Source of the DNA: a virus
Taxonomy: Duplodnaviria > Caudoviricetes
IMG/VR virus record: IMGVR_UViG_3300028326_000230
Location: 1 to 53,621 of that record
Strand: one strand, 5' to 3'
DNA: 53,621 nucleotides
Below the pieces are notes generated by a model. The model ran no database searches and had not been told where the DNA came from. It saw only the letters and a program-made list of their open reading frames with translations. Of the stretch, positions 1 to 34,351 are shown in pieces (position 1 is the stretch's first letter; each line of letters starts with the position of its first letter). Position numbers and translations under genes: made by a program.

Positions 1-56
1 TCGGCCTCGCGAAGGATGCCGACCATCTGCTCTTCCGAAAATCGTCCCTTTCTCAT
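1..56 (-). CDS. IS3-family transposase OrfA, N-terminus (partial)
   Basis: Manual translation MRKGRFSEEQMVGILREA matches the typical IS3/IS407 OrfA start. Confidence 0.85.
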   Translation of the reverse strand, partial: MRKGRFSEEQMVGILREA

Positions 57-125
57 GGCTCCCTCTTTGTCGTCGGGAGTCACCTTCTCAAGTTTCAGAT
101 GGTCCGAAAAGACCAGGGCAGGTCA
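1..125 (-). mobile_element. Left end of an IS3-family (IS407-like) insertion sequence, running off the window edge
   Basis: The minus strand starts TGACCTGCCCTGGTC at 125, an IS3-type 5'-TG terminus, followed by an RBS (GAGGGAG) and an orfA start at 56. Confidence 0.8.
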
Positions 126-178
126 GTACAGCAGGAACGCCACATGATAAAAGTCTGAATTTGAAACAGGATTTATCG

Positions 179-634
179 ATGAGAATTCTTGCAGGAATTA
201 TTGCCACTCTAGTTATCGCATTAATTCTATATATATTCTATTTCCTTCAAAAAAATGATACTTTGCTTGACGACGGCGCGACTGTAGAAGATTGCATTTA
301 CAATAAAACTAAAAATGTCACCACAGAAATTGCGAAAGGAATAGCAGTACGGAAGTGTCGGAAAAAATTTAAGGACATTGCGCAGCGAAATCATTATCTC
401 GCCATACTCAAGATCGAAAAATTACATTACCAACCACTCTGCGTGATAAATCTCGAAAACTTCCGAAACGAAAACAAAGACTACTACAGACAAGCAAAAT
501 TAATCGATGTAGCGGAAGATCTTTTTACCCGCTCAGGTTCTGAAGAATCAGGCGTGTCATTTGAACAATTTGCCATCGACAACAGCTTAGTAGACCAACT
601 TGCAAACGAAGCCCGTTCTGTTGGAATAAAATAA
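179..634 (+). CDS. Membrane-anchored hypothetical protein; its C-terminal domain is homologous to the N-terminus of the giant phage protein
   Basis: N-terminal TM helix (ILAGIIATLVIALILYIFYFL) and a Cys-x20-Cys segment. Residues 96-147 of the TTG-161 ORF align ungapped to giant-protein residues 3-54. ATG 179 or TTG 161 start. Confidence 0.75.
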   Translation: MRILAGIIATLVIALILYIFYFLQKNDTLLDDGATVEDCIYNKTKNVTTEIAKGIAVRKCRKKFKDIAQRNHYLAILKIEKLHYQPLCVINLENFRNENKDYYRQAKLIDVAEDLFTRSGSEESGVSFEQFAIDNSLVDQLANEARSVGIK

Positions 635-824
635 ATATATAACAAAAAACGTCATAATTATTTCTAAACGCCACCAGATACTATTTACCTACACGTATCG
701 TCAATCACATTGAAAACATTGTAATATCCACATGTAATAAAAACATAAAATGCGAGCATATCATTACATAATAACATGTAAAACGCTGCAGCAAAATTAA
801 AAAAATAGCCTGCTATTAAAAACT

Positions 825-1763
825 ATGAATACAAAACAAAAAGTTTTTTTTCGTCGGGTCATGCTTGTAGCCGGTATTCTTCTTATATTTTCATTTGGTT
901 TTTACATATATCCTTTTGTCTTTAAAACATTTCCAGAAATAGATATCCGGATACGCTCAATAATTGTCATCTTAATCAGTATTTCAATAAGTATTGCAGC
1001 GGTAGCGCTACAAAAAAGTATCGAAAAGAAAGGAGAAAAAAATGAATTTCTTGAGATAGACTTCCGAAATTCACCATATAATCAAAAAAAACAATTAGTA
1101 TCCCTACAGGAATATATAAAAAAATTAATTGCACAGAATGACAACAAAAATAATGCAGAACTAATTGCAACAATAAATGAATTAAGCAACGCTAAAGTTG
1201 ATGACAAAACATATGAAAAATTTGAAAAATATTTTAAGTCAATAATTGATAAAATTGAGCAACAGATATCAGTTGCAGACGAAAAATCATCAATATTACT
1301 AAATCGTGGAATCCTATATGCTAAATTTGGAATCACTTTTTTCATTTTCAGCATAGCAGCATGGCAAATATTGAGCTTAATATTTCAATTTCATGAACAT
1401 TTTATTTACGGGATAATATCCTGCTCCATTCTATTTATATTTGTTGAATTTATTAGCGCTTGGTTCCTAAAACAATATCGTTGTTTTATTGACACTTCAA
1501 CATATCTAATTAAAATCAAATCAATATTTGATAAATACTTTCTTTGCTATATGTTTACAAAAGAGACAAAAACGTCCAACCAACACATTCAATGTATGTT
1601 AGATATTTTAAGTGCGGAAATCAAATGGCCAGAATCATATCTGTCCAAGAAAATGGATAATGGCTTCGCAAAAGAAGCAATGGAATCCATGACTTGTTTT
1701 TTTGAAGCCATGAAATCTCAAACAAAAGAACTAAAAACAAAAAAAGCTGAAAACGATAATTGA
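825..1763 (+). CDS. AT-rich hypothetical membrane protein (2 TM, coiled-coil, 2 TM)
   Basis: 312-aa ORF with four hydrophobic segments flanking a Lys/Glu-rich helical region. Confidence 0.75.
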   Translation: MNTKQKVFFRRVMLVAGILLIFSFGFYIYPFVFKTFPEIDIRIRSIIVILISISISIAAVALQKSIEKKGEKNEFLEIDFRNSPYNQKKQLVSLQEYIKKLIAQNDNKNNAELIATINELSNAKVDDKTYEKFEKYFKSIIDKIEQQISVADEKSSILLNRGILYAKFGITFFIFSIAAWQILSLIFQFHEHFIYGIISCSILFIFVEFISAWFLKQYRCFIDTSTYLIKIKSIFDKYFLCYMFTKETKTSNQHIQCMLDILSAEIKWPESYLSKKMDNGFAKEAMESMTCFFEAMKSQTKELKTKKAENDN

Positions 1764-1905
1764 TAAAAAATTCAATTTTAGGGCTTGGAAAACTATTGTC
1801 CTTCAAAATCAATAGAGATTTACACCAATGGAATAAGATACGAAGCTTGATACAGTTTTTTCCATGAAATATAAAATATTCATCCCTAAATAAGGAGATA
1901 ACCAT

Positions 1906-2274
1906 ATGCACCTCCACCTAGTTCCCTGCGGAATATATCAAAATAAAGGGCCAATTCAAGCACAAAATTTATACTACTCCCAACGATTTATAGACGCAAA
2001 AAATCATTGCACAACGAAAGGACTATTATGGCGCATCATTTCGACAAAGCATAACCTGCTCGATCCAACGACGGTAATAGCAAACTACAATACTCCTATT
2101 CCTATCACCGGTACTCAAAACTATGCAAACTGGTTAAGCACAATAATTTCTCAACTGGGAACTATCATTTCTACTAGTGACAATATTACTGTTGTTAATT
2201 CTACACCAAGTTTTGCACCCTTATTTGCTGATATCAAATTAATTTACAGCAATCTTGCTCTTATCTCTGTATAG
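1906..2274 (+). CDS. DUF6884-like protein
   Basis: Strong RBS (AAGGAG). The pattern LVPCG...AQNLYYSQRF...WRIISTKHNLLDPTTVIANYN resembles the DUF6884 consensus (A.DLY.S..F...ILSAKYGL..P...I..YD). Confidence 0.6.
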   Translation: MHLHLVPCGIYQNKGPIQAQNLYYSQRFIDAKNHCTTKGLLWRIISTKHNLLDPTTVIANYNTPIPITGTQNYANWLSTIISQLGTIISTSDNITVVNSTPSFAPLFADIKLIYSNLALISV

Positions 2275-2482
2275 TCAGCTACCTCCGGCAAAGCCTGGGG
2301 CATGCAAGGCAGTGAACCGCTCAAAGCGATTTAAGAGAAAGCTGGCTAAAGCTGGCAACCGCTAAACCAAGTTAAGTTGCTCCAACCGGCGATCTTCTTG
2401 CTCTTGTTTCCTGATGTATTCACGAACAAGAGCCTCATCCAGACCGACGGTTGAAACGAAGTAATTACGTGCCCAAAAGCTA
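2274..2482 (-). pseudogene. tnpA: IS200/IS605-family remnant: C-terminus of TnpA (Y1 transposase) plus right-end hairpin region
   Basis: 2478->2362 translates FWARNYFVSTVGLDEALVREYIRKQEQEDRRLEQLNLV*. Downstream lies CGCTTTGAGCGGTTCA...CCCCAGGCTTTGCCGGAGG, an IS200-type end. Truncated at the IS1595 left IR. Confidence 0.85.
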
Positions 2483-2547
2483 GGCGATATTATACTTTAC
2501 AAACCCAACCGGGCCAAGTATGTTTTAGCCAAGTTGAGGGTAACCCC

Positions 2548-3480
2548 ATGATCATTCATTCAAAGCCTTTTTTTCACGACGAGCACGCATCCATTGAAAA
2601 GCTTGAGCAAATTCTCTGGCCGAACGGGCCGGTTTGCCCACATTGCGGTGGAACCGAGAAGATATATCGGCTAAATGGTAGTTCTACCCGGGCCGGGTTG
2701 CTTAAGTGTGGACATTGTCGGAAACAGTTCACGGTAAAAGTGGGAACGGTATTCGAGTCCAGCCATGTGCCTCTCTACAAGTGGCTTCAGGCGGTCTACC
2801 TCATGTGCACCAGTAAAAAAGGAATCAGTGCGAACCAGCTCCACCGGACCCTTGAGGTGACCCTCAAAACGGCGTGGTTTATGGCGCACAGAATTCGTGA
2901 AGCCATGAAAGATGGCCTTATCCCCATGATGGGTGGAGAGGGGAAAATCGTGGAGGTGGACGAGACTTTTATCGGACGCGACTACACGATTAAACCCAGG
3001 GGGGATAAGCGTGGGCGCGGGTATGCCTATAAACATAAAGTTCTTGCACTTGTGGAGCGTGGGGGAAAGACCATCAATATGGTAATTGATGATCTTAAAG
3101 CTAAAACATTGCTGCCTATTCTAAAGGAGCAAATAGATCAGCAATCTAACATTACGACGGACGAAGCTAGTAAGTATGATGCCTTGAATAAATATTTCGT
3201 TGTCCATGACTTTGTGTATCATAGACAAGGTGAATATGGGTGTGGAATTATTCACCAGAACATTATTGAAGGATTTTTCAGTATCTCCAAACGAGGGATG
3301 AAGGGGGTTTATCAACACTGTACCCAAAAGCACCTTCATCGATATATTGCAGAATTTGACTTTAGGTATAACAATAGGGAAATTTCTGACATAGACAATC
3401 TTTACTATATCATTGGCGACATATCGGGTAAAAGGCTTATGTACAGGGACTCATTAATCGCTGTGGCAGTAGGAATGTAG
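2548..3480 (+). CDS. IS1595-family DDE transposase
   Basis: Zn ribbon CPHCG...CGHC, HTH (KKGISANQLHRTL...TAWFMAHRIR), catalytic VEVDETFIG / TTDE / NIIEGFFS, and YIAEFDFRYNNR. Confidence 0.93.
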   Translation: MIIHSKPFFHDEHASIEKLEQILWPNGPVCPHCGGTEKIYRLNGSSTRAGLLKCGHCRKQFTVKVGTVFESSHVPLYKWLQAVYLMCTSKKGISANQLHRTLEVTLKTAWFMAHRIREAMKDGLIPMMGGEGKIVEVDETFIGRDYTIKPRGDKRGRGYAYKHKVLALVERGGKTINMVIDDLKAKTLLPILKEQIDQQSNITTDEASKYDALNKYFVVHDFVYHRQGEYGCGIIHQNIIEGFFSISKRGMKGVYQHCTQKHLHRYIAEFDFRYNNREISDIDNLYYIIGDISGKRLMYRDSLIAVAVGM

Positions 3481-3482
3481 CC

Positions 3483-4292
3483 ATGGCTCATATTAAAATC
3501 AGAATGACCCTCGCTCGTGGATTGCCAGGAGTTCCTCTTGGCCATCTTTCCAAAGCTACGAAAGCTCTTGAAGATTTTTTGCATGTCCTGTCTATTGAGA
3601 ACGGGATAGAACTTGATCCTTGCAAATGGGTAGCTGAGTGCTTTAACGACAAGCACAGTGTTGCATTCAGCGCAATGAACCTTGACCAGTGCACTGACAG
3701 TCAGTTTATAGATTACAATAGGTCATTTGATTATGTTGCGAACTTTGATCCTTCCAAGGATGAAGTTTGCTATGTTTCCGGAGAGGTTATGGAAAAGTGG
3801 GTTGAGCTTGGTTCTAAGGCTCTGCCTGATATTCCAATTTATTTGGGATATTACACTACTCCATTATCTAAAAAAGCTAGGAGTGTACCTGCATTAAGCA
3901 AGAGTAAAGCCATGCGGTTGAAAAAATTTTTAACCGACAGAATAGTTTATAATACTACTCTGCTTTGTGAAATATCTTCTCTCCAGATAGATCAACTTTA
4001 CATAAACATTAGAGACGTTGCAACTGGACAAATTTTTAAATGCTATTTTGATGACGATAAGTATAAAGATATTTTGGGATCGATATACGACAGAGGTTCC
4101 AGGATATATATATCCGGCATGGTAACAGCCTTCCGCGTTGGACTAAAGGTTGAAAAAATGAAGCTTGAGAACTTTGAAACGGCTCCAGTTTATCAAGATG
4201 GTGATTTGGAAAAGTTACATGGTCTTTTTCCGGATATGACCGGGAAAGAATCTACTTCTGACTTTATAGACAAGGTCCGGCATGATGACTAA
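3483..4292 (+). CDS. Hypothetical passenger protein, possible antitoxin/partner of the PIN protein
   Basis: 269-aa ORF starting 2 nt after the transposase stop and overlapping the PIN gene. The C-terminal half is beta-rich (possible OB fold, inference). Confidence 0.7.
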   Translation: MAHIKIRMTLARGLPGVPLGHLSKATKALEDFLHVLSIENGIELDPCKWVAECFNDKHSVAFSAMNLDQCTDSQFIDYNRSFDYVANFDPSKDEVCYVSGEVMEKWVELGSKALPDIPIYLGYYTTPLSKKARSVPALSKSKAMRLKKFLTDRIVYNTTLLCEISSLQIDQLYINIRDVATGQIFKCYFDDDKYKDILGSIYDRGSRIYISGMVTAFRVGLKVEKMKLENFETAPVYQDGDLEKLHGLFPDMTGKESTSDFIDKVRHDD

Positions 4293-4875
4293 GAGCAAAA
4301 TATATATAGACTCGTGCTGTGTAATCAATTATTGCAAAGGAGAAACTAGAAGTAATTTAACAGAGGATGAAAAGAAAGATGTTTGGTTTATAAAAAGGAT
4401 GTTTTTAGCCAAATTTCATAATGATGTAGAAATTTTTACATCAGCATTAACTATAGCTGAATGTTTATATACGGACAAGATGACTTTTTCAGCAACAGAT
4501 GAAGAAAAGGAAATATTTAACAGGGTGCTTTTATCGGGTAGAATTGCACTATCTTACCCAGTTGACCACCTAATAGCATTAAAATCTCGTGATATTAGAT
4601 GGAACAATAAGATAAACATACGTCGTGGTGCTGACGGTGTCCACGTTGCGACTGCTGTAAACCTTAAATGCAATGAACTGTGGACCATTGATGGCAAGAT
4701 AGCGAAGGATGATGCTAGGAAAAAAATATTTTCTCAATATGGTTTGGCTATAATAAATCCGTCAAAAACATTATGTTTGCCAGATGAATATAAAAAGCTC
4801 TTGCTTACCGATAAAATTGAAGAGGGCATTAGAGATGGAAAAAGAAAAAAAGCAGAAGCAATCCAACCAGTATGA
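4282..4875 (+). CDS. PIN-domain (VapC-like) ribonuclease
   Basis: PIN acidic motifs IYIDSCCVI, SALTIAEC, ADGVHVATA and LWTIDGK. Confidence 0.85.
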   Translation: MMTKSKIYIDSCCVINYCKGETRSNLTEDEKKDVWFIKRMFLAKFHNDVEIFTSALTIAECLYTDKMTFSATDEEKEIFNRVLLSGRIALSYPVDHLIALKSRDIRWNNKINIRRGADGVHVATAVNLKCNELWTIDGKIAKDDARKKIFSQYGLAIINPSKTLCLPDEYKKLLLTDKIEEGIRDGKRKKAEAIQPV

Positions 4876-5005
4876 AAAATTTGCAGAAGTAGCCAAAATA
4901 CTTCAGTGCGACGAAAGCGAATCAGCCTTTGACGCAGCCCTCTCCAAGTTGGCCAAGCAGCCGCCAGCCCCCAAGCCTATCAAGAAAGACAAACCAACCA
5001 AATAG
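4835..5005 (+). CDS. Small IS1595-associated hypothetical protein
   Basis: MEKEKKQKQSNQYEKFAEVAKILQCDESESAFDAALSKLAK resembles the short Q..KF...A..L.CDE.E.AFD..L.KL proteins recalled from IS1595 element ends. Confidence 0.6.
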   Translation: MEKEKKQKQSNQYEKFAEVAKILQCDESESAFDAALSKLAKQPPAPKPIKKDKPTK

Positions 5006-5830: not shown

Positions 5831-6259
5831 ATGCAAGCGTTGACCTTTTTACCCCTGGCCGCCCCAACCCGGTTGGCTCTGCCCCTCTACTTATCGCCAG
5901 TCGCGGCCGGTTTTCCCTCGCCAGCCGAGGACTATATCGACCGGAAACTCGACCTCAACGAGCAGCTTATCCGCAACCCGGCGTCCACGTTCTTTGTGCG
6001 CGTGGACGGCGACTCCATGCGCGACGCCAGCATCGCTTCCGGTGACATCCTGGTGGTGGATCGATCCCTGGCCCCCCGCAACAACGCCATCGCCATCGCC
6101 GCGATCAATGGCGAGCTGACCGTCAAGCGTCTGAAAAAAGTCCTGTCACGGCTGTGGCTCGTGCCCGAAAACCCGGAATTTCCACCCATCGAAATCGTCC
6201 CGGAAATGCAATTCGAGATCTGGGGCGTAGTCACCTACATCATCCACAAGGCGGTCTGA
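5831..6259 (+). CDS. umuD: DNA polymerase V accessory subunit UmuD (S24 autopeptidase)
   Basis: VAAGFPSPAEDY cleavage site, FFVRVDGDSM (catalytic Ser), TVKRL (catalytic Lys). Confidence 0.95.
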   Translation: MQALTFLPLAAPTRLALPLYLSPVAAGFPSPAEDYIDRKLDLNEQLIRNPASTFFVRVDGDSMRDASIASGDILVVDRSLAPRNNAIAIAAINGELTVKRLKKVLSRLWLVPENPEFPPIEIVPEMQFEIWGVVTYIIHKAV

Positions 6260-6261
6260 CC

Positions 6262-7539
6262 ATGGCCCGGGTTTTCGCCCTGGTGGACTGCAATTCCTTT
6301 TACGCGTCCTGCGAAAAGGTCTTTGTCCCGGCCCTGGCCAGGCGGCCGGTGGTTGTGCTCTCGAACAACGACGGCTGCATCGTGGCCCGCTCGGCCGAGG
6401 CCAAAGCCCTGGGTATTCCTATGGGGAAACCGCTTTTTCAGTGCCGGGACCTTATCCGCTGCCATGACGTGGCCGTATTCTCGTCGAACTATGCCCTGTA
6501 CGGCGACCTCTCGGCCCGGGTCATGGCCACCTTGGCCAGATTCACACCGGAACTGGAAATATATTCCATCGACGAGGCGTTCCTGGAGTTAACCGGGATG
6601 TCCGAAGACCTGACCGCCTATTGCCTTCGCATTCGGGAGACGGTCAGGCGCTGGACCGGAATTCCGGTCTCCATCGGTATCGGTCCAACCAAGACCCTGG
6701 CCAAAGTCGCCAACAAGCTGGCCAAACAATATCCTCGCCTGGACGGCGTGCTGGATCTGACCGGGCGTGCCGACCTGGAACCGGTCCTGGCCCGGGTTGC
6801 CATCGATGATGTCTGGGGCATTGGCCGGCGCTACGCGGCCATGCTCGAAAAGTATGGCGTACGTACGGCGTTGGACTTCTCTCGGTTGCCCCGGGACTGG
6901 GTCAAAAAGAAGATGACCGTGGGCGGACTGCATACGCTGCTGGAACTGCAAGGCGTATCCTGCCTGTCCCTGGAGCAAGCGCCGGCGCCGAAGAAATCCA
7001 TAGTGTCCTCGCGCTCCTTCGGCGAACCGGTCACGACCTTGGCGGACATGCGCGAAGCCCTGTCCTGGCACGTGTCCCGGGCAGCGGAAAAACTGCGGGC
7101 ACAACGGGGACTGGCCTCCTCGATCCTCGTCTTCGTGCAGACCAATAAATTCATTGCCGGAGAACCGCAGTACGCCGCATCGGACTCGACAGCCCTCCCG
7201 ATCCCCACCGCCTACACCCAGGATCTGCTTCAGGCCGGCCTGGGCCTCCTGGAACGGCTTTTCAAGCCGGGCTACCGCTACAAAAAGGCTGGCGTCATGC
7301 TGGTCGGCATCGAACGGGCATGCGCTGTCCAGGGATCACTGCTGGCGTTGCCGGAGGAGGCGGACACGCGGCGCAAAGCGCTCATGACGGCCCTCGACCG
7401 GGTTAATTCCCGATGGGGGCGCGAAGCGCTAAGGCTGGCGGCCACAGGAATCAAACGATCCTGGACCATGCGCCAGGAACGGCGCTCGCCGAGATATACC
7501 ACGATATGGTCTGAACTTCCGGTGGTCAGGGCAAGGTAA
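6262..7539 (+). CDS. umuC: Y-family DNA polymerase V catalytic subunit UmuC
   Basis: FALVDCNSFYASCE, VLSNNDGC, YSIDEAF, and C-terminal W.MRQERRSPRYTT. Start reassigned to ATG 6262. Confidence 0.95.
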   Translation: MARVFALVDCNSFYASCEKVFVPALARRPVVVLSNNDGCIVARSAEAKALGIPMGKPLFQCRDLIRCHDVAVFSSNYALYGDLSARVMATLARFTPELEIYSIDEAFLELTGMSEDLTAYCLRIRETVRRWTGIPVSIGIGPTKTLAKVANKLAKQYPRLDGVLDLTGRADLEPVLARVAIDDVWGIGRRYAAMLEKYGVRTALDFSRLPRDWVKKKMTVGGLHTLLELQGVSCLSLEQAPAPKKSIVSSRSFGEPVTTLADMREALSWHVSRAAEKLRAQRGLASSILVFVQTNKFIAGEPQYAASDSTALPIPTAYTQDLLQAGLGLLERLFKPGYRYKKAGVMLVGIERACAVQGSLLALPEEADTRRKALMTALDRVNSRWGREALRLAATGIKRSWTMRQERRSPRYTTIWSELPVVRAR

Positions 7540-7576
7540 GAAACTAAAATCGGACGCGATTACTCTCAGACATGAA

Positions 7577-7837
7577 TCACGGCAAAAGATTATCTGGCAA
7601 CTGCATCGCCAACAATTGTGCCCGACGCTTTGCAGGTAATGGTTCCCTGCAGGAAATCAACCATTTCCCTGGCGCAGACTTATGAACGCCCATCCTCTTG
7701 GCCAATTTCGCAAGAGACAACCCCTGAACCTGCAGCCAAACCTGCAACCGCTTGGCGCGGGGCATGCCGGCAAAGACACCCGGAAGGGGCAACGAGCTGT
7801 GCATCTTGGCGATTGGATCGAAAAAATTGGTGGCCAT
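7577..7837 (-). CDS. Small XRE/Cro-like HTH protein
   Basis: QGLSLAKLAKRMGVHKSAPGKWL HTH pattern; ATG 7837 overlaps the upstream stop (TGATG). Confidence 0.65.
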   Translation of the reverse strand: MATNFFDPIAKMHSSLPLPGVFAGMPRAKRLQVWLQVQGLSLAKLAKRMGVHKSAPGKWLISCREPLPAKRRAQLLAMQLPDNLLP

Positions 7838-8523
7838 CAGCTCGGCACCATGATCGTCAGATCGAGCGCCCGCAGCTGGGACGGTTTGGAGCAGTCTTTG
7901 ATTTTGGCCACGAGCGCCTGGCGTTGCCCGATGATGTTGGCGCTTGTTGCCGACCACGCCTCATTGTTGGCCTGCACGGCCATGGCGAATGCCGCGTAGG
8001 TTTCTCCGGTCACGGCGATGATCCCACCGATCACCGGATATTTTGCAGCGGTTGGACTTGTGTCCTGCAGGATAGCCTCCGCCTCCGCGAGCTGCGCTGA
8101 CCAGGTCTGGCGTTCCAAATCCGAGAACCGCGACGCAAGCGCCGCCAGGGCCGCCTGGCAGTTATCCCGGGCCGTTTCAATTGCCGCCGTTTTGAGTGCA
8201 TCCATATCGGGCTGCAACCACTCCCCACCGAACATTGGCACTCCGGCTGGCGGATCGACCAAGGACACCACATCCGGCCAGGTCGCGGCCTCGATCACGG
8301 CGGCTTGCGCGTCCGTGGCCCGCAGCACGGCATACTCGCCGTCATAGTAGGTAGGGGCCGTGATCTCGGTGCCTGTGTCAGCATCGTAGACGCCAGGCGT
8401 CTTGACCACTTGGCCCACCCAAATCCAGTCGCCCACCACCTGCCCGTCGCACACCAATCCCAACACGTCCAGGGCCGTCACGAGTGTGCTCTGATCCGTC
8501 GTTTTGAAACAAAAATCCTGCAT
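7837..8523 (-). CDS. Phage tail fibre assembly-like protein
   Basis: C-terminal ERQTWSAQLAEAEA...IIGQRQALVAKIKDC pattern typical of tail-fibre chaperone-like phage proteins; RBS GAGG. Confidence 0.55.
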   Translation of the reverse strand: MQDFCFKTTDQSTLVTALDVLGLVCDGQVVGDWIWVGQVVKTPGVYDADTGTEITAPTYYDGEYAVLRATDAQAAVIEAATWPDVVSLVDPPAGVPMFGGEWLQPDMDALKTAAIETARDNCQAALAALASRFSDLERQTWSAQLAEAEAILQDTSPTAAKYPVIGGIIAVTGETYAAFAMAVQANNEAWSATSANIIGQRQALVAKIKDCSKPSQLRALDLTIMVPS

Positions 8524-8535
8524 TAACGCCTCGCT

Positions 8536-8898
8536 CTATTCTTGATAACAGGAAAAGTCCCACATTTGCCCTTCTGACCAACAGAACCGTACGCCCATGA
8601 TACCGGCATAGAATGTGGGAAGGGGCCTGAAAAACCGACATTTTGCGCAGGGCGCTGCCACGGGCAGAGGGGCCGATTCAACCGTTGTTTGTACCACAAA
8701 ATCCATTTTCACAGTCTTTTGTTCCGCATCGGAATCCTCTGAGAAATCAAACTCCTTCCATTGCGTACATCTGCGGCAACCCTCAGGCCGGACGAATGGA
8801 GAATCGAATGATGCAGAAAGCGGGCGGCTCCTGTTTATCCTGCATTGTTCAAGAGTGATACGCGCAGATAGCGCCTTGCAATCAAAGAGTTCAATCAT
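8536..8898 (-). CDS. Cys-rich hypothetical protein (possible Zn-binding)
   Basis: MIELFDCKALSARITLEQC...GCRRCTQW...CAKCRFF...FCW...SCYQE. ATG 8898 is preferred because the longer ORF start lies inside the repeat. Confidence 0.6.
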   Translation of the reverse strand: MIELFDCKALSARITLEQCRINRSRPLSASFDSPFVRPEGCRRCTQWKEFDFSEDSDAEQKTVKMDFVVQTTVESAPLPVAAPCAKCRFFRPLPTFYAGIMGVRFCWSEGQMWDFSCYQE

Positions 8899-8929
8899 AA
8901 TAAAGGGCTCGGTCAAACTTAATAAGATG

Positions 8930-9001
8930 TATGCTACGCAACACGAATCAACACTACACAACGCCCCCGCCGCACTTCACTTCACCACACCATTGCTAAA
9001 C
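8930..9001 (-). repeat. 5-nt-periodic degenerate repeat (GYG+NN, 14 units); candidate guide-like ncRNA
   Basis: Minus strand: GTTTA GCAATG GTGTG GTGAA GTGAA GTGCG GCGGGG GCGTT GTGTA GTGTT GATTC GTGTT GCGTA GCATA. 13/14 units start GY and 10/14 start GYG. Confidence 0.75.
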
Positions 9002-9002
9002 G

Positions 9003-9632
9003 TTACTGCGCTGGAAGCAGGTCGAACGTAAAACGCCCAAACCCACCACCGCGAAACTGACCGAGCCCTAAAAATTGGCCATATTCAAGCAGCTGCTCAA
9101 TAACTACAAAAGAAAGTTCCTCATGAGGAAGCAATCCAATGGTTATCGTAAACGACAACTCAGGGGACGGGTTAATAATTTCCGAACTGGCCAAGGTATT
9201 TCGTGGTCCGCGTATCGTCATTGCCTGAAGCGGCCGTTCAAATATTCCATCAGGCATGCGATTCAGATGAATAACTCGTGGACCGACATATAAAAATTGC
9301 GTGAGCTTGTTCCGTAAATTCTTGATGCCTTTTTTACCATGCCCAACTTCAACAAGAGCTTTCAATGTATTCCCGGCTGCTTTTAGGAATCCAAAAAATT
9401 GATAATCCAGCAAACAGCAAAAGCCTGATTCATCACGCAGAAAGACCGTCGTCTTCGGTTGGGTCACTTCAGGCAGCATATCCGTCTCTTCCTGACCTTC
9501 GACGTCAGGCTCAGGCGCTTTGCGAGCGATATAATCTTTATAGACCTGCTTGGATGACGGGAGAGAGCCCAGGATTGGCTCAATAAATGTGATCTTATAA
9601 TCACGATACTGTATGCTGTCGGAAAGAGACAT
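9003..9632 (-). CDS. Stand-alone RAMP/Cas7-like RNA-binding protein
   Basis: N-terminal strand YKITFIEPILGSLP, helix FFGFLKAA, and C-terminal glycine-rich loop YGQFLGLGQFRGGGFGRFTF, all RAMP-superfamily hallmarks; 209 aa. Confidence 0.75.
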   Translation of the reverse strand: MSLSDSIQYRDYKITFIEPILGSLPSSKQVYKDYIARKAPEPDVEGQEETDMLPEVTQPKTTVFLRDESGFCCLLDYQFFGFLKAAGNTLKALVEVGHGKKGIKNLRNKLTQFLYVGPRVIHLNRMPDGIFERPLQAMTIRGPRNTLASSEIINPSPELSFTITIGLLPHEELSFVVIEQLLEYGQFLGLGQFRGGGFGRFTFDLLPAQ

Positions 9633-9643
9633 TACATAAACCC

Positions 9644-9928
9644 CTATTGAAATAAGTCTTTGACATAAAAACTTCCAAATCTACACGTCCCATTCCATGC
9701 TCCAATCTTGAATCGTGGATGGAACTTATAGAATCCTGGCTGATCAAGATCACCTGTCTTCGTAATATAGACTAAATACTGACCATCCTGGAGCGTTGCC
9801 TCCCATACAACTTGTTTCCCATCAGGCTTCCGAACGAGAAACACAATATCGACAGCCCCGGTAATATCCTGCTGGCAATCTGCCCGAATCTCCAATCCGA
9901 CATCTCCGACATGTATATCCGTGGCCAT
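9644..9928 (-). CDS. Small beta-sandwich phage protein (BppU N-terminal-like)
   Basis: IHVGDVG...RKPDG...YITKTGDLDQPGFY pattern; RBS GGAGG. Confidence 0.6.
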   Translation of the reverse strand: MATDIHVGDVGLEIRADCQQDITGAVDIVFLVRKPDGKQVVWEATLQDGQYLVYITKTGDLDQPGFYKFHPRFKIGAWNGTCRFGSFYVKDLFQ

Positions 9929-9936
9929 AAAGCCTC

Positions 9937-10938
9937 CTAAACCTCTTCCACTTCACACGGAGTGGAACAACAGACGGACCGAGATAACGGTGTACACAAC
10001 AAGATATTCGATGGAAGAGATGACCGGATGACGACTGGCCCAGGGACTGCGGACTGCATGATGGTTTGTGATGCAAACGGCGTCACCCGAAGAAGCTGCG
10101 AGGTAAACGGAGTACGGCAACGCCAAACTTCACGAATCCCCGTGTCCGTTATGAGAGACTGGACAGAAATTGCGAGCAACGCCGCGTTCAGATGGGGTGT
10201 CGTCGCCACGTCAACCGATACTGAAAGCGCATCAATGCGCAGCTCGCAGACTTCGGACAACGCCACGGCACACGGTGTTCCCGCTGCGGCTGGTTCCTCA
10301 AGATGGCATTCCGCGACACTGGCATTCGCCAGTCCAGCCACGGACGTCGTTGTTGGCAACGCACTCCAAACGCCGACAGCCGTTCCAACCTGGACCGACA
10401 CCACGCTTTCGGTCGTAACCGTCGCCGGTTGGGGCACGACGGCCACGCCGACAAAACCAAGCTCGGCCAGCCCAAAACCAGCCGAAGCGGCGGGTCCAAC
10501 GAAGGACGTGATTGCAACTGACGGGGTTGCGCTGACGGCAGAGGCGACGATGCCGGCCTGGGCTACGGCAAGCGCCAATTCGGATCGGACAGTCTGGACA
10601 GAAGCGGCCGGGAAGACCTCGCCGGCCTGAAGACAAAAAGACATTCCGGCTGGCGTGGCCGGAACCGTGGTGCCCATGACGCCGGTCGCAGGTTGTGCCG
10701 CCACGGCAGCCTGTGTTGCCGGAATCGAAGCGATGGCGAATGGAGTGGCAACACAGCCCGGCGCGGAACTGGTGGCCATGGCCGCATTGACAGCCGCGAC
10801 AGCAGACGGGGCAGCCGTGGCCGCACAACACGCCACGCCAGCAGTGGCAACGCCAACGAGAACGGTGGCGTCACCACTGACCCATGCCGAGTCATCACCG
10901 ACCCAGGCTCTTGGAGAATCGCTCCAGGGACCGTTCAC
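9937..10938 (-). CDS. Ala/Val-rich phage tail-associated protein
   Basis: Long ORF in the operon; probable GTG start at 10938, 2 nt after the upstream stop. Confidence 0.55.
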   Translation of the reverse strand: MNGPWSDSPRAWVGDDSAWVSGDATVLVGVATAGVACCAATAAPSAVAAVNAAMATSSAPGCVATPFAIASIPATQAAVAAQPATGVMGTTVPATPAGMSFCLQAGEVFPAASVQTVRSELALAVAQAGIVASAVSATPSVAITSFVGPAASAGFGLAELGFVGVAVVPQPATVTTESVVSVQVGTAVGVWSALPTTTSVAGLANASVAECHLEEPAAAGTPCAVALSEVCELRIDALSVSVDVATTPHLNAALLAISVQSLITDTGIREVWRCRTPFTSQLLRVTPFASQTIMQSAVPGPVVIRSSLPSNILLCTPLSRSVCCSTPCEVEEV

Positions 10939-10940
10939 GA

Positions 10941-11357
10941 CTAGCTCAGCAACAAAATACCGGTGGCCTCGAACTGTACGGTAAACGTCCCGCCCGTGAC
11001 CCCTTTGTCCGCTCCGAAGTCGAGCAGGCACACAAGCGGGTTGACCAGGCTATTGGCCGTACCGGATTTGTAGATGACGGCATAGCGGGCCGTAATGGTG
11101 GCCGTGGTCCAGGACGGATCATCGGCATCCAGGACGGCCTTGCCATCCACGATGCCCCAGGTCACGTTGGCCAGGGTGGCGCCCCCGGCCGTATAGCCGG
11201 TGCCCGTCACCTCGCCGGTCAGATCGCCGAACACGGCATTGGCCGCGTTCGGCGTATGGGAGGAGGAGAACAAAGCGCACTTGAACGTGTCGGCATCCAT
11301 GTCAAAGGTGCCGTCGCCGATGCGCCGCTTGAAGCTCGTGTAGACGATGTCGGCCAT
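10941..11357 (-). CDS. Conserved phage structural protein
   Basis: DTFKCALF...EVTGTGYTAGGATL...DADDPSWTTATITARYAVIYK...GGTFTVQF, a widespread phage tail-region family; RBS GGAG. Confidence 0.8.
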   Translation of the reverse strand: MADIVYTSFKRRIGDGTFDMDADTFKCALFSSSHTPNAANAVFGDLTGEVTGTGYTAGGATLANVTWGIVDGKAVLDADDPSWTTATITARYAVIYKSGTANSLVNPLVCLLDFGADKGVTGGTFTVQFEATGILLLS

Positions 11358-11369
11358 GGTGGAGGTCTC

Positions 11370-14300
11370 CTATCTGGCAAATTGGGCCGCCCGGTCCATT
11401 GCCTGACGCTCTCTCTCGCGAAGAGCCTCCATCCTCCTGGTCTTCATCGGTTCGGGCAGGCGCGACTTCTGCACCTTGCCCATTTCGTCATGTACCGCTT
11501 GCACTCGATTAACCAACAGACGCAAGCGCGGCAAGCGGGATTCGTCGCGCACCCGCGCCGCCCCGGTCAGGTCGCCGTCCGCGCGCAGCGCGTCATAGCG
11601 TTCCTTGGCCTGGGCATAGGCCCGGCGCACCGCATAGTACGGATGATCGAGCCCGGCGATATCGCCTTCGGTCAACGCTTCGGCTGGCTTCTGTTCGCCG
11701 CCGGACAGCCTGTCCCGCTCGCGCTTCGTCGGCTGCGCCAGGCGTTCGGTCTGCCGCAACAGGGTCGCCCGGGTGATATACGACACGCGCCCCGAAAGTC
11801 CGGCTTCGGCTACGTCCCGGTTGTAGGCGGTCACCGCGTCCACGATTGCCGCCCGTTCGGCCGCGTCTTTCCCTCCGGACAAGGCAAAGGATCGGAACCG
11901 CGCGTACAGCCCGTCGCGACGTTCGGTGTAGCGGCGTTCCTCGTCGATGGCCTCGCTCGTCCGCTCCCTGGCCCGGGCTTCGCGCACCGGCCGGAAGCCC
12001 AAAGCCTTGGCCGCGGACTCTCCGGGAGTCGGCACAAGCCGTTTCCCGTCCGCATCGAAAACGGGATAGTTTTTCGATGTCGAAACGCCCTGCTCGGATT
12101 CCCGCACCGCTTGCAGGATCTTCGACACTCCGGTCGGCAGCAGCTTTTCCAATCCGCGCCCGGGCTGGCCGCCGGCAACGTATCCCAGCCCCTGGAGAAC
12201 ATCCCGCCCCAGGCCGCCCATGGGACCGAGCACATCCACCCAGGTATCCGGGATATCGATCATGGTGCCGATCGATCCATGCAGGTCCGACCCGGTCACG
12301 AGCCCAAGCAGGCCGAACCGGGCCAAATCCTCGGCCCCCTCGCCCAGGTTGCGCCTGGTCCAGTCGTACACCCATTTTTCCGGGTCGTCGTCCGATCCGG
12401 ACGCCGCGAAAATCCCTTTCACGAGCGAGGTCAACACCTGGCTTCCGATGCCGCCCAAAACAATGGGCGCCCCCAAGGCGTAGGTCGCGGCCTGCCAGTC
12501 TTTTTTGGCGAACAACTCATGGATCATTTGCAGGTAGTTGTGGCCGTACTTTTTGTAGACGTACCACGACTGCCCCAGCCGTGACCCCATGCCGGTTCCC
12601 CAGGTCCAGGCCGGTTGCGTGGCCCGGTCATAGACGCCGTGCGCCCGGTCGCTCGTTTCCCTGGCCCGGGCCATGGCCGTGGCATGATCGGCGCCGGCGC
12701 CCCGGGCCAGCCGATACGCCGCAAGCAGCGTCGAGCCCCGGTTCAGTTGCTCCGTCGCCCCGAACAGGGCCATGGTCTTGCCCATGAGCCAGGACCAGGT
12801 CTTGCCGGCCGTGTCGCGGTAGACGGACAACGCCTCCCGCGCAAACTGCGGATCATCCAGGGATTCGCGCCGCACCAGGTCCAGGAATTTTTGCTCGTCC
12901 GCCGAGAACCCGCCCCACTTGCCGGTCATGCGTCCCAGATAATCCCACATAGACCGGGCCACCTCGCGCCCGATCTTGGCCCACCCGCCCTTGCCTTCCA
13001 GGGCATAGGCGTGCAGGGCCGCCGGCACCGACGTGGCCATGGATGAGACGTTGACCAGGGCCGACCGGGGATTGAGACCCAGGTATTTCAGGCTGGCCAA
13101 CGATTTGGCCAGGGAGAACACGCGGTCCCCGGCTTCGGCGTTGCGCAGGTTCTCGGCCAGGTAATCCACCCCCAGCCGGTAGACCTCGCGCTCCTTGCGG
13201 ATATCCACGCCCGGGGCCTCCTTGGTCCCGAACAGGGTCTTGGTCGCCTTGCCGGCCGCCTCCATCTTGGCCAGGCCATAGGCCGTGTTCCCGGCGTACC
13301 GGGCGAACCGCTCCACGGCATCCTTGAAATAACCCTGCACCGCTTCGCCGTGGCGTCCAGTGCGCCGGATGGATTGCGCCCGGAACCCGCGTGCCTTCAA
13401 ATCCTCGGCCAGGTTCTCGACCAGCTCTTCGACCATGGCCGCGTCCACGCCGTCGCCGGCACTGCGCCGGGCCGCGCTTTCCACGGTCTTGGCCAGCTCC
13501 AACGCCTTGACCACCTGCTGGGTGGCCTCGGGCAGCTTTTCCAGCCGGGACACCGATTCCATGTTCCAGCCGTCCCGGGCCATCTTGGCCCGCAACGCCT
13601 CGGCCCCGGCCCGCCACTCCTTATGGGCGCGGAATCGCTCCACCGTGCCGTCCTCGCGCTCGCGTTGCCCGCGCACCACATACTCGCCCGTCTCGCGCAA
13701 ACGCGGGGCGTAGAACCCCTTGAGCTGGCCCATGCGCTCCACGGCTTCGGCCAGGGAGAGCATGACCGCCTTGCCGGACTCGTCCACGAACCGCACGTCG
13801 GCCAACTGGCCTTTGATCGTGATGCCTTCCTTGCGCGCCTTGCCCACTACCTCGCGCACCGTCTCGGCATGCGCCCGCAACTCCCGGGGCAGGCTTTGGT
13901 CCTTGTGGTAGGCGGCCGCGTCAAAGGTCTTGGACGCTTCGGCCGGCACGTCGGCCGCGACCAGGCGCCGCCGGATCTTGGCCTCGTACTGCTTGCGGGC
14001 CTGGTCGATCAGATCCCGGTAGGATTGCAACCGCGCATCGAGGAGCATGTCATAGCGTTCGCGCATGGTCCGCCAGAGGCCGATGGTCGCCTCCGTGGCG
14101 CCATGTTCCTTGAACCAGGTCTCCATGGCCTCGGGGCGGATCTCGTTCACATCGGCGTAATCCACGCCGTCGTTCAGGATCTCGCGCTGCGCCGTATCCT
14201 TGAGGACGTCCTTGGCTTCCTGGAGGATGGTGCGGTCTCCGTCCAGGTCAAAGGCCTTGTGGAGCAATTCGTGGGCGCGGTCGGTGCGGTCGCGGAACAC

Positions 14301-17300
14301 TTCGTACAACCGCTTGAGTACCGGATGCTGCCAGTATTCCGGGGAACGGAGGATTTTCCCGAGCACGGCGGTCTCTTTGAACTTGTCGCCGACCGCCGGC
14401 AGGATGGAGCGCACATGGGCCGTGGCTTCGTCGCGGAGCCAGTCCTTGAGCTTGGACGGTTCCTCCGGCACGCCAGTCAAGGCGCCGGCCCGGGCGTAGC
14501 GGACCGTTGTCTTGACTCCATTCAGAAGATGACTTACGGAAATAGTGTCTTGGCCATCGCCGCCAGGAACTGGTGAGCCGGTCGCAGGTTCGTTGATCCG
14601 CTGCCCATCGGGCATGTCACGGACAGGTCGGGCCGGCTCTTCCATTTCCGTCAGGGAATGGTCATAGAGCTTACGGCCGTCCGCGTACTCTTTCACCGTC
14701 AACTTGACACGGGCAAGACCCTCCCCAGTCCGCAACGGCGCGTACAGGCGATGAATGGCCTTGATATGCGGATCACCGGCTCTATCCGGTTCCGTGTTCG
14801 CCAGGACCGCCTCCCTGACTAGTGCCGGCATAACCCGCATCGCCTCATAGTGCAGCCGGTCTTCCCGTTGGCTTGTCTGCTTGGCGACACGGCTCCGCGT
14901 AATCTCGATATCCCAGCCCGTTTGTTCATTGCGGTAGATGCCAGGGAGATTTTCAACCGCCCATTTTCTGGCCTCCCGTCGCAGTGCGGCGATATTTCCC
15001 GCCTCGAATCGCTGTTCGGGCAAGGAAACGACCCGGACAGCCCTCTCTCCGTCCCGTCCTTCTTCGCTCCGGGCATAGGCCAACGACGGCGCCAAGGTCC
15101 GTCCCAGCGGCGCCACATAATCAAGCCCCTTGCCATCCACGAAATCATCGGCCTGGGCTACGAGCTGGCGCAATTCCGCCTTGGTCAGGGACAGACCCGG
15201 GAAGATCGAGCGCACCCATTGCGCGACCTTGGCCAACAACCGGTCCAGGGCGCGGTGCACGGTGCCGTCCTTGGCCCACGTGGCCAGGATTTCTTCGGCC
15301 GCTTCGGCCCTGGTTTCGCGTGTGGACTCCAGGCCGGCGCGCCCCAGCCATTTGGCGACCTCACGCGGCATGCTCCGTGAGGCCTGAAGCATAAAATCCT
15401 GGCGTCCGTCAGGCCCTCCCAGCATCAGATCAAAGGCGCCGTGCCGCCCCTCATGCCGCAGCAGCCCTTGGACGAAAGCGGTCTGGCCAGCCTTTTCCGA
15501 AGGGATATTGCCGGAGACAAAAACCATACGCCTGGAGTCCGGATCATAAGCGCCGAAAAACTGGCCGGAAACGCCGTCCCGCTCGACTCTCTTGCGTATG
15601 GCCGCCGGCAGGTCCGCCTCGGATTCGTAGATATCCACGATCCCGGCCAGGGCCGGCACCTGCCGCAACCCCTGCCGCAAGCTCTCGGACACGGCCCGGG
15701 CCATCCGCTCGATGCCGCGCGTGGGTGAACCCTGCCAGGCCCGTTGCAGCATAACCGGCGCGCCATCAGCCTCGTCTTCGCCATCTTCCCCGGCTTCCTT
15801 CGCTTTTTCCAGATCTTCGTTCTTGGCCGCCTTCAGTTCGGCCTCGACTTGGCGCAATCGCTTGCTTGTCTGCTGAAACTCTTCTTCCCGGGAGAATTTC
15901 TCCTCCACCAGCTTTTCCAGGGAAACCGCCGACTGTTGCGCCCGCTCGACCGCATTCTGAATGTTCTCCGGCTCCCTGGCGACACTCTCCAAGCCGTTGT
16001 TGAAGCTCTGCACGAACCCGGTCGGCGTATTGAAATTCTTTGAAAAAAGTTGATCTTTTTTCTTGTCGAGAACTTCATATTCCCCGGTCAGCATAACGTC
16101 GGTCACGTTGGCCATGCCATCGGAGCGATTCGAGTCGGCACCCACCGCCCGGGATGAAACCGGGGTAATGGTGGCCACGACCTCATACCCGCCCGTCTCG
16201 AATCGAACCGATCCGACGAACTTTTTGCGGACCGACTCGTAATGCGCGACGGTCCCTCCGACAGTCTCCTTTTCGAGGCGTTGCTTCACGCCATCATACC
16301 AGGCCGTCAGTTTGGTCGTAAAATCCTTGCGGTCGAAATTCCCGTCCTTGAGTGTGAACTTTTCCGCCTTGAGGCCAGGGAAAGCCTTGCGCAGCTGTTC
16401 GGCAGACGCTTCGGCCACCTTCAGGTTCGTTTCTAGTCTCGGGATCTGGACTTCCCGCAAGGCGTTCAGCTGGTGGATACGGGCGGCCTTCTCATCCTGA
16501 AACGCCTGGCGCAACCGCCCCAGGTCGCGGACATGGCCTTCCAGCTTCACACGCTCCATGGCCAAGGGATTGCCCGAGAAGGCGGCCATCATGTCCTCGA
16601 AGGACAATTGTACGTCGTCGAAGGGGTTCTCCATCACGTCCCCGTCGATCTCACCGCGCAACAACTGATTGATAAACTTCTGCTTGTTCTGGAGGATGTT
16701 GAAGCTCACGGAGTCCAAGGTGTTCTTCACTCCGTAGGCCAGAATCTCCACCTTGGAAAACATGTTCCCCTGACGTCGGATGCGCCCGTTGCGCTGCTCC
16801 CAATCCATGGGACGCACCGGGGGCGAGAGATGATGCAACGCCTGCAGGCGTTCCTGGATGTTGACTCCAACACCGAGCTTTTCTGTGGACCCCATCACCA
16901 CCCGCACGTCGCCGGCATTAACCGCCGTAAAAAGCTTTTCCCGGTCCTTCTCGTTGTAGTCGTAGATGATGGCGATTTCCTTGGCCGGAATGCCCTTGGC
17001 CACCAGCTTACGCTTCAGGTCCTTCCAGATGTTGAAGCTCTTGTCCGAGGATTGGTAAATGTCGCTGAAAATCGCCTGGGCCGCGCGCTTGTCCGCATGG
17101 GCCACGTAACGCTTGTAAATCTCGTCGGCCGCCGCCTCGAGCTTTCCCCCGGGCGCCTCGGCCAACTTTGGATTGACCAGGCGCATGTCCAGGGCCGCCT
17201 TCTGGGCCAGGTTGTAGATTAAAAGTGGCACATGGGATTGCTGGCGTTTTTCCTTCCCTCCCAAGTTCTCCCATTGCATCCGCCATTGTTTGAGATGCTG

Positions 17301-24773: not shown

Positions 24774-24774
24774 A

Positions 24775-30272: not shown

Positions 30273-30715
30273 TACCATCTCCTCCCAAGCGAAAGGACAT
30301 CCACGCCCACGGCCGTCACCTCGGCCTGTCCCTCACCCGAAACCTCAAATTGAAAAGCCCCACCTTGACCTCCGCGCCCCGCGACAAAACACCCAGGCCG
30401 GAGTTGTTGCACAGCCGGGCTTGATCCATTTTCATAACGGATGGCCACACGGACATCCTCAAGCCTCGGCCCGGCCAAGGAAACCGCCCGCACCCGCTTG
30501 ACGTCATCGCGCCCCAAATCCGTTTCCGGCCCGGCGACACGCCAAAGAATCGGGTCTCCGGCGTCATCACCCCCCCCAATGCGATAGAGCCCATCGGGAG
30601 CCGTGGCATAAAAATGGCCATCCATTTGAAAGAAGGATGAAAACGGCCAACCACTATATTGGCTCGGAACCATTCCATCCAAAGCCAAGGACAAGCACAG
30701 CGTATTGCTGTTCAT
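30272..30715 (-). CDS. Phage tail-region protein
   Basis: ATGA-coupled ORF; SQYSGWPFSSF...GLYRIGGGDDAG...TDLG...KRVR pattern. Confidence 0.7.
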   Translation of the reverse strand: MNSNTLCLSLALDGMVPSQYSGWPFSSFFQMDGHFYATAPDGLYRIGGGDDAGDPILWRVAGPETDLGRDDVKRVRAVSLAGPRLEDVRVAIRYENGSSPAVQQLRPGCFVAGRGGQGGAFQFEVSGEGQAEVTAVGVDVLSLGRRW

Positions 30716-34338: not shown

Positions 34339-34351
34339 GTGTAATACCTAT

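Follow-up and report, generated by a model that had tools for sequence, protein, structure and literature searches.

A probable compact VIPR locus with a G-pyrimidine repeat tract in a Caudoviricetes phage record

Organization of the locus

The stretch of DNA that was analysed, referred to as the window, is the whole of an IMG/VR virus record (IMGVR_UViG_3300028326_000230, Caudoviricetes; 53,621 nt), and the host of this phage is probably Desulfovibrio-like. On the minus strand, a vipr-like gene (9003..9632) encoding a 209-aa single-chain RAMP protein (Cas7/Csm3-like) with the C-terminal G-loop GLGQFRGGGFGRF was found to be followed by a candidate vrRNA repeat tract (8930..9011), a 3' tail that extends from the last repeat unit to the next start codon (8899..8929), and a candidate accessory, vap-like gene encoding a cysteine-rich protein of 120 aa (8536..8898). 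The vipr-like and accessory genes are both intact frames that carry all of the family-invariant residues.

When read on the minus strand, the 72 nt from 9001 to 8930 consist of 14 units, and two further in-phase units, GCGCA and GTAAC, lie over the stop codon of the vipr-like gene. The tract probably runs from 9011 to 8930, including the two units that overlap this upstream stop codon, and it then comprises 16 G-Y-N-N-N units. The first three bases of the 14 units are, in order, GTT, GCA, GTG (four times), GCG (twice), GTG (twice), GAT, GTG, GCG and GCA, and the last two bases are TA, AT, TG, AA, AA, CG, GG, TT, TA, TT, TC, TT, TA and TA, respectively. Two units, GCAATG and GCGGGG, are 6 nt long and the others 5 nt, and unit 11 (GATTC) is degenerate, with no pyrimidine at position 2. 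An earlier reading of the reverse complement of 8930..9001, made from the letters alone (the sequence-only reading), had listed the 14 units, their variable dinucleotides and the two 6-nt units exactly as they are found here. Position 1 is G in 14 of the 14 units, and the base counts at positions 2, 3, 4 and 5 are T8 C5 A1, G10 T2 A2, T9 A3 C1 G1 and A6 T4 G3 C1, respectively. Within the window array, positions 4 and 5 are the most variable, yet position 4 is T in 9 of the 14 units.

The longest chain of GY anchors on either strand of the 53.6-kb window has 12 unbroken anchors at 5- or 6-nt spacing (9011..8954), and it was matched by none of 100 block-shuffles, whose maxima were 7 to 11. A Fourier test of G at a period of approximately 5 in the 72-nt tract was not significant (1511 of 5000 shuffles were as good), because the 6-nt units shift the register, and Tandem Repeats Finder returned only a weak period-10 row for the tract. 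The statistical support from the window alone is modest, and the real support is comparative. Stop codons occur inside the tract in all three minus-strand frames, and the tract is not protein-coding. A TTG-started frame at 8536-8961 was rejected as to its 5' end, since all ten homologues start at the ATG at 8898. Of 200 shuffles, 198 fold better than the predicted tract RNA (z +1.87), and this poor folding fits a C-poor strand that is kept single-stranded for protein binding.

The tract starts at the stop codon of the 209-aa ORF and ends 31 nt before the start of the 120-aa ORF. Promoter and terminator scans gave nothing above shuffles, and no promoter was predicted between the vipr-like gene and the tract. 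A search of positions 7000-11000 against Rfam returned only a chance miRNA row (E 0.71), and blastn of 8400-10000 against phage records gave no match. An identical 256-nt contig from a wastewater metagenome corresponds to window positions 8674-8929 and ends exactly at the 3' edge of the tract; the end of this single low-depth contig may reflect an assembly break at the variable region. Metagenome contigs matched the stretch only in parts, and no RNA run was listed among the sequencing runs that contain the phage.

Homologues of the 209-aa protein numbered 36 at E <= 1e-3, among them hypothetical proteins whose sources are named as Desulfovibrio sulfodismutans and Solidesulfovibrio, and the family has the invariant C-terminal motif G-L-G-Q-[FW]-R-x-x-x-x-G-R-F. 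No Pfam, PHROG or PADLOC family was found for the 209-aa or the 120-aa protein, and tblastn of the 209-aa protein against phage records returned four unannotated gut phage records only. Vipr proteins are distinguished from the CRISPR RAMP proteins by the lack of the second RRM and of other elaborations; at the level of the list of secondary-structure elements, the 209-aa protein agrees with one RRM plus a hairpin.

VIPR (Viral Interference Programmable Repeat) is described in three bioRxiv preprints (10.64898/2026.04.26.720920, 10.64898/2026.04.26.720927, 10.64898/2026.10.15.759431), the text of which presents it as phage-borne RNA-guided DNA silencing that is older than CRISPR and uses a discontinuous pairing code. 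According to the text of the first, Vipr is a phage-borne RAMP protein that co-purifies with vrRNAs of approximately 100 nt, made of 9-16 YNNGG repeats and then a conserved tail; the protein binds GGY, the NN pairs read double-stranded DNA, passing over one base of the target in each unit, and phage genes were silenced by reprogrammed guides (10.64898/2026.04.26.720920). The same text gives NNNGG, YNNNG and NNNNG as alternative repeat consensus sequences; among the systems that it reports are some with just one vrRNA and arrays that are staggered or spaced by ribozymes, and the accessory genes fall into six families (10.64898/2026.04.26.720920). In the text of the second, each repeat is occupied by one protomer, the filament being right-handed and each of its turns made of six subunits, or of five once DNA is bound, and in the Vipr of Escherichia phage SUSP1 G1 is contacted by H17 and D177, G2 by R138 and W178, and Y3 by R179 and its neighbours, N4N5 being the pairing bases of the SUSP1 vrRNA (10.64898/2026.04.26.720927). 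The bench tests that these texts report have so far been of the GGY/NN type only, in E. coli and Pseudomonas phages.

When the profile of the 209-aa family (A1) was aligned by hhalign with a profile of SUSP1 Vipr and four diverse phage homologues (A5), the match was 94.9 % with an E of 4.4e-8 over 175 columns, near end to end (query 7-207, template 1-191). The match of A1 to the lone SUSP1 Vipr sequence was weak (45 %) and aligned at the C-terminal G-loop only, and an HMM search of the SUSP1 genome with A1 returned nothing. The product of the vipr-like gene has a RAMP fold and is homologous to a tested Vipr.

The 3' tail contains GTTTGACCGAGCCC at 8918..8905. A C.AGCCC motif was invariant in 12 of 12 aligned close-clade loci, 7-30 nt upstream of the start of the cysteine-rich gene; the loci with this motif are the window (8905-8918, minus strand), L093, L002, L003, L005-L010, L089, L095 and L171. 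In the L005 group the motif belongs to a hairpin, as its 3' arm, and an apparent compensatory change was noted by eye (GGCTC..GAGCC in L005 and GGCTT..AAGCC in L006). The motif may be part of the vrRNA tail, a processing site or a translation signal. Folding of the window RNA made no hairpin evident in the tail, which is short, and showed no pseudoknot, and no tail motif common to the wider family was found. The 120-aa protein has 8 invariant cysteines in two clusters (C7, C19, C41 and C44; C84, C87, C106 and C117), and in each of the 10 close-clade loci that were aligned its gene comes directly after the array. The middle domain of the cysteine-rich protein is variable and is absent in the window copy, and no BLASTP similarity was found between the 120-aa protein and SUSP1 vap1. 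These findings show that the tail motif and the neighbour gene are conserved. A prophage-like copy of the locus, L089 (NZ_CP188261.1, Solidesulfovibrio sp. DCME chromosome, 2765369-2773953), has a short array as in L005-L010 and is a clue to the host range of the phage group that carries the vipr-like locus; its frame after the array diverges past approximately 10 residues, and the accessory gene may be disrupted there.

Several other features of the phage record were observed. Positions 1-5000 form a low-GC island (29-46 % GC compared to approximately 62 % elsewhere) with genes for a DUF6884 protein (1906-2274), an IS1595-family transposase (2548-3480) and a PIN-domain protein (4282-4875), and it is followed by UmuD-like (5831-6259) and UmuC-like (6154-7539) genes. 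A second low-GC island (32882-36187, minus strand; 35-40 % GC) holds three ORFs of 209, 275 and 611 aa, none of which had a Pfam, PHROG or PADLOC family; the 209-aa ORF of this island (32882-33511) was considered as a Vipr relative and rejected as unrelated to Vipr. A single open frame of 4590 aa (11370-25142, minus strand), of unusual length for a 53.6-kb phage record, contains a 273-nt tandem repeat of 1.9 copies (22868-23386). The ORF at 26385-30278 (minus strand, 1297 aa) has in-frame tandem repeats at 27634-28449 and 28796-29435 (270 nt x 3.0 with 95 % match and 339 nt x 1.9, respectively), and the C-terminal part of its protein matches phrog_10969, a family of unknown function.

Linkage, composition and turnover of the arrays

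By scanning IMG/VR together with contigs from genomes and metagenomes, 164 loci carrying the gene were found, with approximately 130 distinct arrays in the comparison set. Linkage was counted in the 142 loci where the gene is flanked by 150 nt or more on either side, a strict array being a chain of at least 10 units on the gene's strand within 300 nt of it. Such an array was present in 116 of the 142 loci (95 downstream, 17 upstream and 4 on both sides), compared to a background of one chain of at least 10 units in 579 kb away from the gene. No strict chain was found in 26 loci, several of which show looser arrays under relaxed scoring, and an array on the opposite strand only was found in 3 loci. 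Nearly all of the first 29 related loci have a long run of 5-nt units beginning with GC or GT right after the stop codon. These findings show that the array is linked to the gene throughout the family. The longest array has 317 units in 1.66 kb (L046, 3574-5236). In the long array of L012 (3609-4507), blocks of approximately four units recur, for example GTAAA GCATT GTTCA GCGGT, which suggests growth by internal duplication.

In the 4937 five-nt units of 130 distinct arrays, the repeat was found to be G, then C or T, and then three mixed positions, with A, G, T and C making up 43, 29, 17 and 10 % of position 3, respectively. Substitutions were counted in 15 independent alignable array pairs, the phase being set by the G-Y anchors of one member of the pair. 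There were 2 substitutions in 464 sites at position 1 (0.4 %) and 32 in 462 at position 2, 24 of them C<->T, compared to 47 in 459, 58 in 457 and 57 in 460 at positions 3, 4 and 5, respectively (10-13 %). The changes among homologues were thus spread unevenly across the unit (chi-square p = 2e-11), and positions 3-5 were indistinguishable from each other (p = 0.5). These findings show that G-Y is the sole constant part of the family unit and that positions 3, 4 and 5 vary equally. The G at position 3 in 10 of the 14 window units is a property of one guide and not of the family, and in the closest relatives, L093 and L002, position 3 is G in 27 % and 12 % of units, respectively. Among the 5-nt units, only 27 % have G in the slot that precedes G-Y. 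In a test for avoidance of stop triplets at positions 3-5, as might be expected if the units mirrored codons, TAA and TAG were the two most depleted triplets (O/E 0.54 and 0.57), but TA is depleted in general and TGA was not depleted (1.04).

Steps of 6 nt made up 1267 of 6204 steps, about one in five. The extra base of the 6-nt units is G in 89 % of cases, and it changes in 1 of 83 sites of alignable pairs. The number of 5-nt units between successive 6-nt units peaked at 4 and 5, and gaps of 3-5 units made up 72 % of 869 gaps compared to 24 % (maximum 28 %) in 1000 order-shuffles. With this spacing, the super-periods are 26, 31 and 21 nt, and the period averages 5.20 nt (for example in L046, L105, L100 and L143). 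The window tract shows the modal pattern once, with four 5-nt units separating its two 6-mers. The recurrence of a 6-nt unit every 5-6 units equals the number of protomers per turn reported for the SUSP1 filament (5-6), and our working hypothesis is that the 6-nt units adjust the register once per helical turn. No mention of 6-nt units was found in the text, as distinct from the figures and supplements, of the first two preprints (10.64898/2026.04.26.720920, 10.64898/2026.04.26.720927).

The arrays differ between loci whose neighbouring sequences are alike. The vipr proteins of the window and of L093 or L002 are 65-72 % identical, and the arrays are of differing lengths and unalignable; despite this, a 14-nt block before the next start codon is common to the window and L093. 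In a contig from a sludge metagenome, vipr and the gene after it match the window at roughly 83-85 % identity, as counted from differences, and the segment corresponding to 8523..8983, which holds the array and the accessory gene, is swapped for 449 unalignable letters. In the subclade of L005-L010, L089, L094 and L095, a short array is nearly identical in all members, and its few changes are at position 5 or are C<->T at position 2.

Interpretation of the tract and its alternatives

In the A1-A5 alignment, D177-W178-R179 of the SUSP1 Vipr fall on Q192-F193-R194 of the 209-aa protein, where Q and R are invariant and residue 193 is F or W, and H17 falls on S23, a position occupied by S or T across the family. 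Residues contacting G2 and Y3 thus appear to be kept and those that read G1 (H17 and D177) to be replaced, in agreement with the absence of the first G from the G-Y-N-N-N repeats. By this homology the G and Y of the family unit would be G2 and Y3 of the SUSP1 repeat, so that N4N5 would correspond to positions 3-4. The pairing bases are probably the two right after the pyrimidine, with position 5 as the relaxed G1 slot.

We consider it highly probable that 8536-9632 (minus strand) is a compact VIPR locus in which a Vipr gene is followed by one vrRNA, a tail that is short and conserved, and a gene for a cysteine-rich accessory protein. By analogy with the systems of the preprints, the tract would be transcribed with or just behind vipr, as it starts at the stop codon of vipr and the scans predicted no intervening promoter, and the RNA would then be processed. 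One Vipr protomer would bind each unit of approximately 5 nt, with the constant G and pyrimidine held in the G-loop (Q192-F193-R194) and thumb pockets, and approximately 14-16 protomers would assemble into a helical filament along a C-poor RNA that is otherwise unstructured. The bases between the G-Y anchors, two or three of them per unit and under a skip rule of the published kind, would pair discontinuously with the double-stranded DNA of a competing phage, prophage or satellite, leading to its silencing.

The clade may also use a variant of the code, a possibility we put forward tentatively and think rather less probable than its negation, in which only G2 and Y3 are fixed, three bases per unit are free and an extra G is inserted each 5-6 units. 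The replacement of the G1-reading residues would mean that the protein fixes only G2 and Y3. If such a variant is true, the 6-nt units would keep the RNA and the filament, or the target helix, in register at each turn, very long filaments would be permitted (as with the relatives of up to 317 units), and the rule may be three bases per unit and not two plus a skip.

The sequence-only reading had proposed a constant G-Y-G alternating with a gapped-target code in positions 4-5, with the 6-mers as segment or processing boundaries and a promoter as the target. Its idea of a gapped guide is right in kind, since it is the mechanism already described in the preprints for the vrRNAs of VIPR, but when homologous arrays were compared the split between constant and variable bases lay after G-Y and not after G-Y-G. 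In its exact form that proposal is unlikely. The prevalence of G at position 3 and the concentration of variation at positions 4-5 that suggested it are both present in the window array, but position 3 is not constant family-wide, changes as fast as positions 4-5, and is not kept as G in the closest relatives. The slot before G-Y is unconstrained in the family and could in principle pair, but the alignment with the SUSP1 Vipr sets G-Y at G2-Y3 and hence N4N5 at positions 3-4, so the dinucleotide string read from positions 4-5 is probably shifted by one relative to the pairing bases (10.64898/2026.04.26.720927, as far as its text describes them). The 6-nt units do punctuate the tract in a regular manner, and the four 5-nt units between those of the window are the modal spacing of the family, but such punctuation is not special to the window array.

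Searches for a target of the guide were also negative. In 1.76 Mb of local sequence, no target rose above unit-order shuffles in any of 20 register and skip combinations, the best match in the register of the sequence-only reading being 20/28 compared to a shuffle maximum of 21. Spaced-seed and seed-and-extend searches with 11,865 units found no target above controls, exact scans of IMG/VR with 6 patterns, some of them in the register of the sequence-only reading, gave 0 matches, and in two registers no match with up to 3 mismatches was found in 251 genomes from the family to which the relative-bearing Solidesulfovibrio genome belongs. A 24/24 match under an 'x+G' register was rejected as a low-complexity coincidence of (AG.TG.)n with a hexamer repeat. 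A promoter target, which the AT-rich 3' half of the tract had been taken to suit, is left without support, as no gapped match exceeded the shuffles and no test of such a target succeeded. By the refuting condition set with the sequence-only reading, these results count against the detection of a target. The searches were narrow, however, and the positive control, an exact scan of IMG/VR with the validated SUSP1 vrRNA1, also gave 0 matches, so that the negative exact scans are weak and were not taken as sensitive. Moreover, since G1 is not conserved and the tract contains 6-nt units and one degenerate unit, the tested SUSP1 skip rule may not carry over to it.

The tract could instead be a cis-acting leader and not a trans guide, the G-Y anchors letting the oligomeric product of the upstream gene cover the cysteine-rich gene's 5' UTR and regulate translation of that gene in a TRAP-like manner. 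The short distance of 31 nt from the array to the next start codon, the conserved position of the tail motif before that start in 12 of 12 close loci, and the 5/6-nt spacing, which resembles TRAP sites, are consistent with this. However, the array lies upstream of vipr in 17 of the 142 loci, and in L046 it is far beyond the size of a leader. Furthermore, the variable positions turn over fast between conserved flanks, and a pure binding platform needs no such turnover, while the homologous SUSP1 system acts in trans on DNA according to the text of the preprints. We regard the leader as an improbable substitute for the guide, the two roles of the tract not being exclusive.

It is very improbable that the tract is a decaying or inactive vrRNA remnant, or a chance G/T-rich spacer, with no present function. 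The unit GATTC, the shortness of the array compared to many relatives, the modest statistics within the window and the failure to find a target would fit a remnant; but G-Y is kept in 13 of the 14 units and in both units over the stop codon, the vipr and accessory frames are intact, the tail motif is conserved, and internal degeneracy is frequent in working vrRNAs according to the text of the first preprint (10.64898/2026.04.26.720920). Chance is excluded by the family-wide linkage of array and gene (116 of 142 loci compared to one chain in 579 kb). The asymmetry of the arrays between strands, together with the homology of the protein to one that forms filaments on RNA, led to the rejection of a DNA-level periodic element as the principal explanation.

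As a VIPR locus, the window adds a compact and intact member from the phage of a sulfate-reducer-like host. The comparison set shows three features of this less-studied G-Y-only branch, namely the three equally free positions, the replaced G1-reading residues and the extra G approximately once per helical turn, and these bear on the generality of the published code and on what sets the length and register of the filament. Further work is best directed at the regular 6-nt punctuation and at the relaxed G1 slot. The locus is also relevant to the proposed origin of CRISPR backbones and to VIPR as a programmable repressor, and it offers a function for a large phage protein family that is unnamed by Pfam, PHROGs and PADLOC.

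Comparison with known systems

The 209-aa protein is 9-18 % identical to the backbone subunits of CRISPR class 1 systems (Csm3, Cmr4 and type VII Cas7). These Cas7 proteins impose a 6-nt periodicity on a free spacer and do not use a sequence-coded 5-nt repeat, and class 1 systems depend on a CRISPR array and on Cas6/Cas5 and further subunits; none of these was seen at the window locus. Tandem Repeats Finder detected no CRISPR-like repeat array in the window, and no Cas families (Pfam, PADLOC) were found among the neighbouring ORFs scanned.

TRAP of Bacillus binds (G/U)AG repeats spaced by 2-3 nt, 11 of which wrap around the protein ring, and it acts in cis on leader RNA. The window tract resembles TRAP sites in its short anchors with 2-3 variable spacer nucleotides, in its period of 5/6 nt and in an oligomeric reader. 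In contrast to the window system, the protein folds are unrelated, and TRAP spacers carry no information and serve a cis action.

The SUSP1 locus was found from its repeats and annotation; its arrays occupy 29226-29166 and 27966-27886, and its 195-aa gene occupies 28474-29061. It is VIPR type II (Vipr, vrRNA and vap1), and its layout of array, 195-aa gene, small gene and arrays is that of the window. The window locus differs from SUSP1 in that only G-Y, and not G-G-Y, is constant in its family; in that H17 and D177 align with S/T23 and Q192, whereas W178 and R179 align with F/W193 and R194; in that about one-fifth of the family's steps are 6 nt, whereas the two SUSP1 arrays are strictly 5 nt; in its tail, a short C.AGCCC block and not a shown pseudoknot; in its accessory product, a two-cluster cysteine protein with no similarity to vap1; and in having relatives with arrays of up to 317 units. 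The repeats of the window do not have the strict GGY/NN form, but G-Y-N-N-N corresponds to the reported VIPR variant YNNNG. As in SUSP1 VIPR, a phage-borne single RAMP protein of approximately 200 aa, homologous over nearly its full length, is encoded beside same-strand repeats of approximately 5 nt with a constant G-pyrimidine and variable bases between. The number of units in the window tract (14-16) falls inside the range of 9-16 reported for VIPR, a conserved sequence follows the last unit, and a small neighbour gene is present. On the basis of the fold, the A1-A5 homology, the array beside the gene, the number of its units, the tail and the neighbouring gene, the locus is filed as a member of VIPR.
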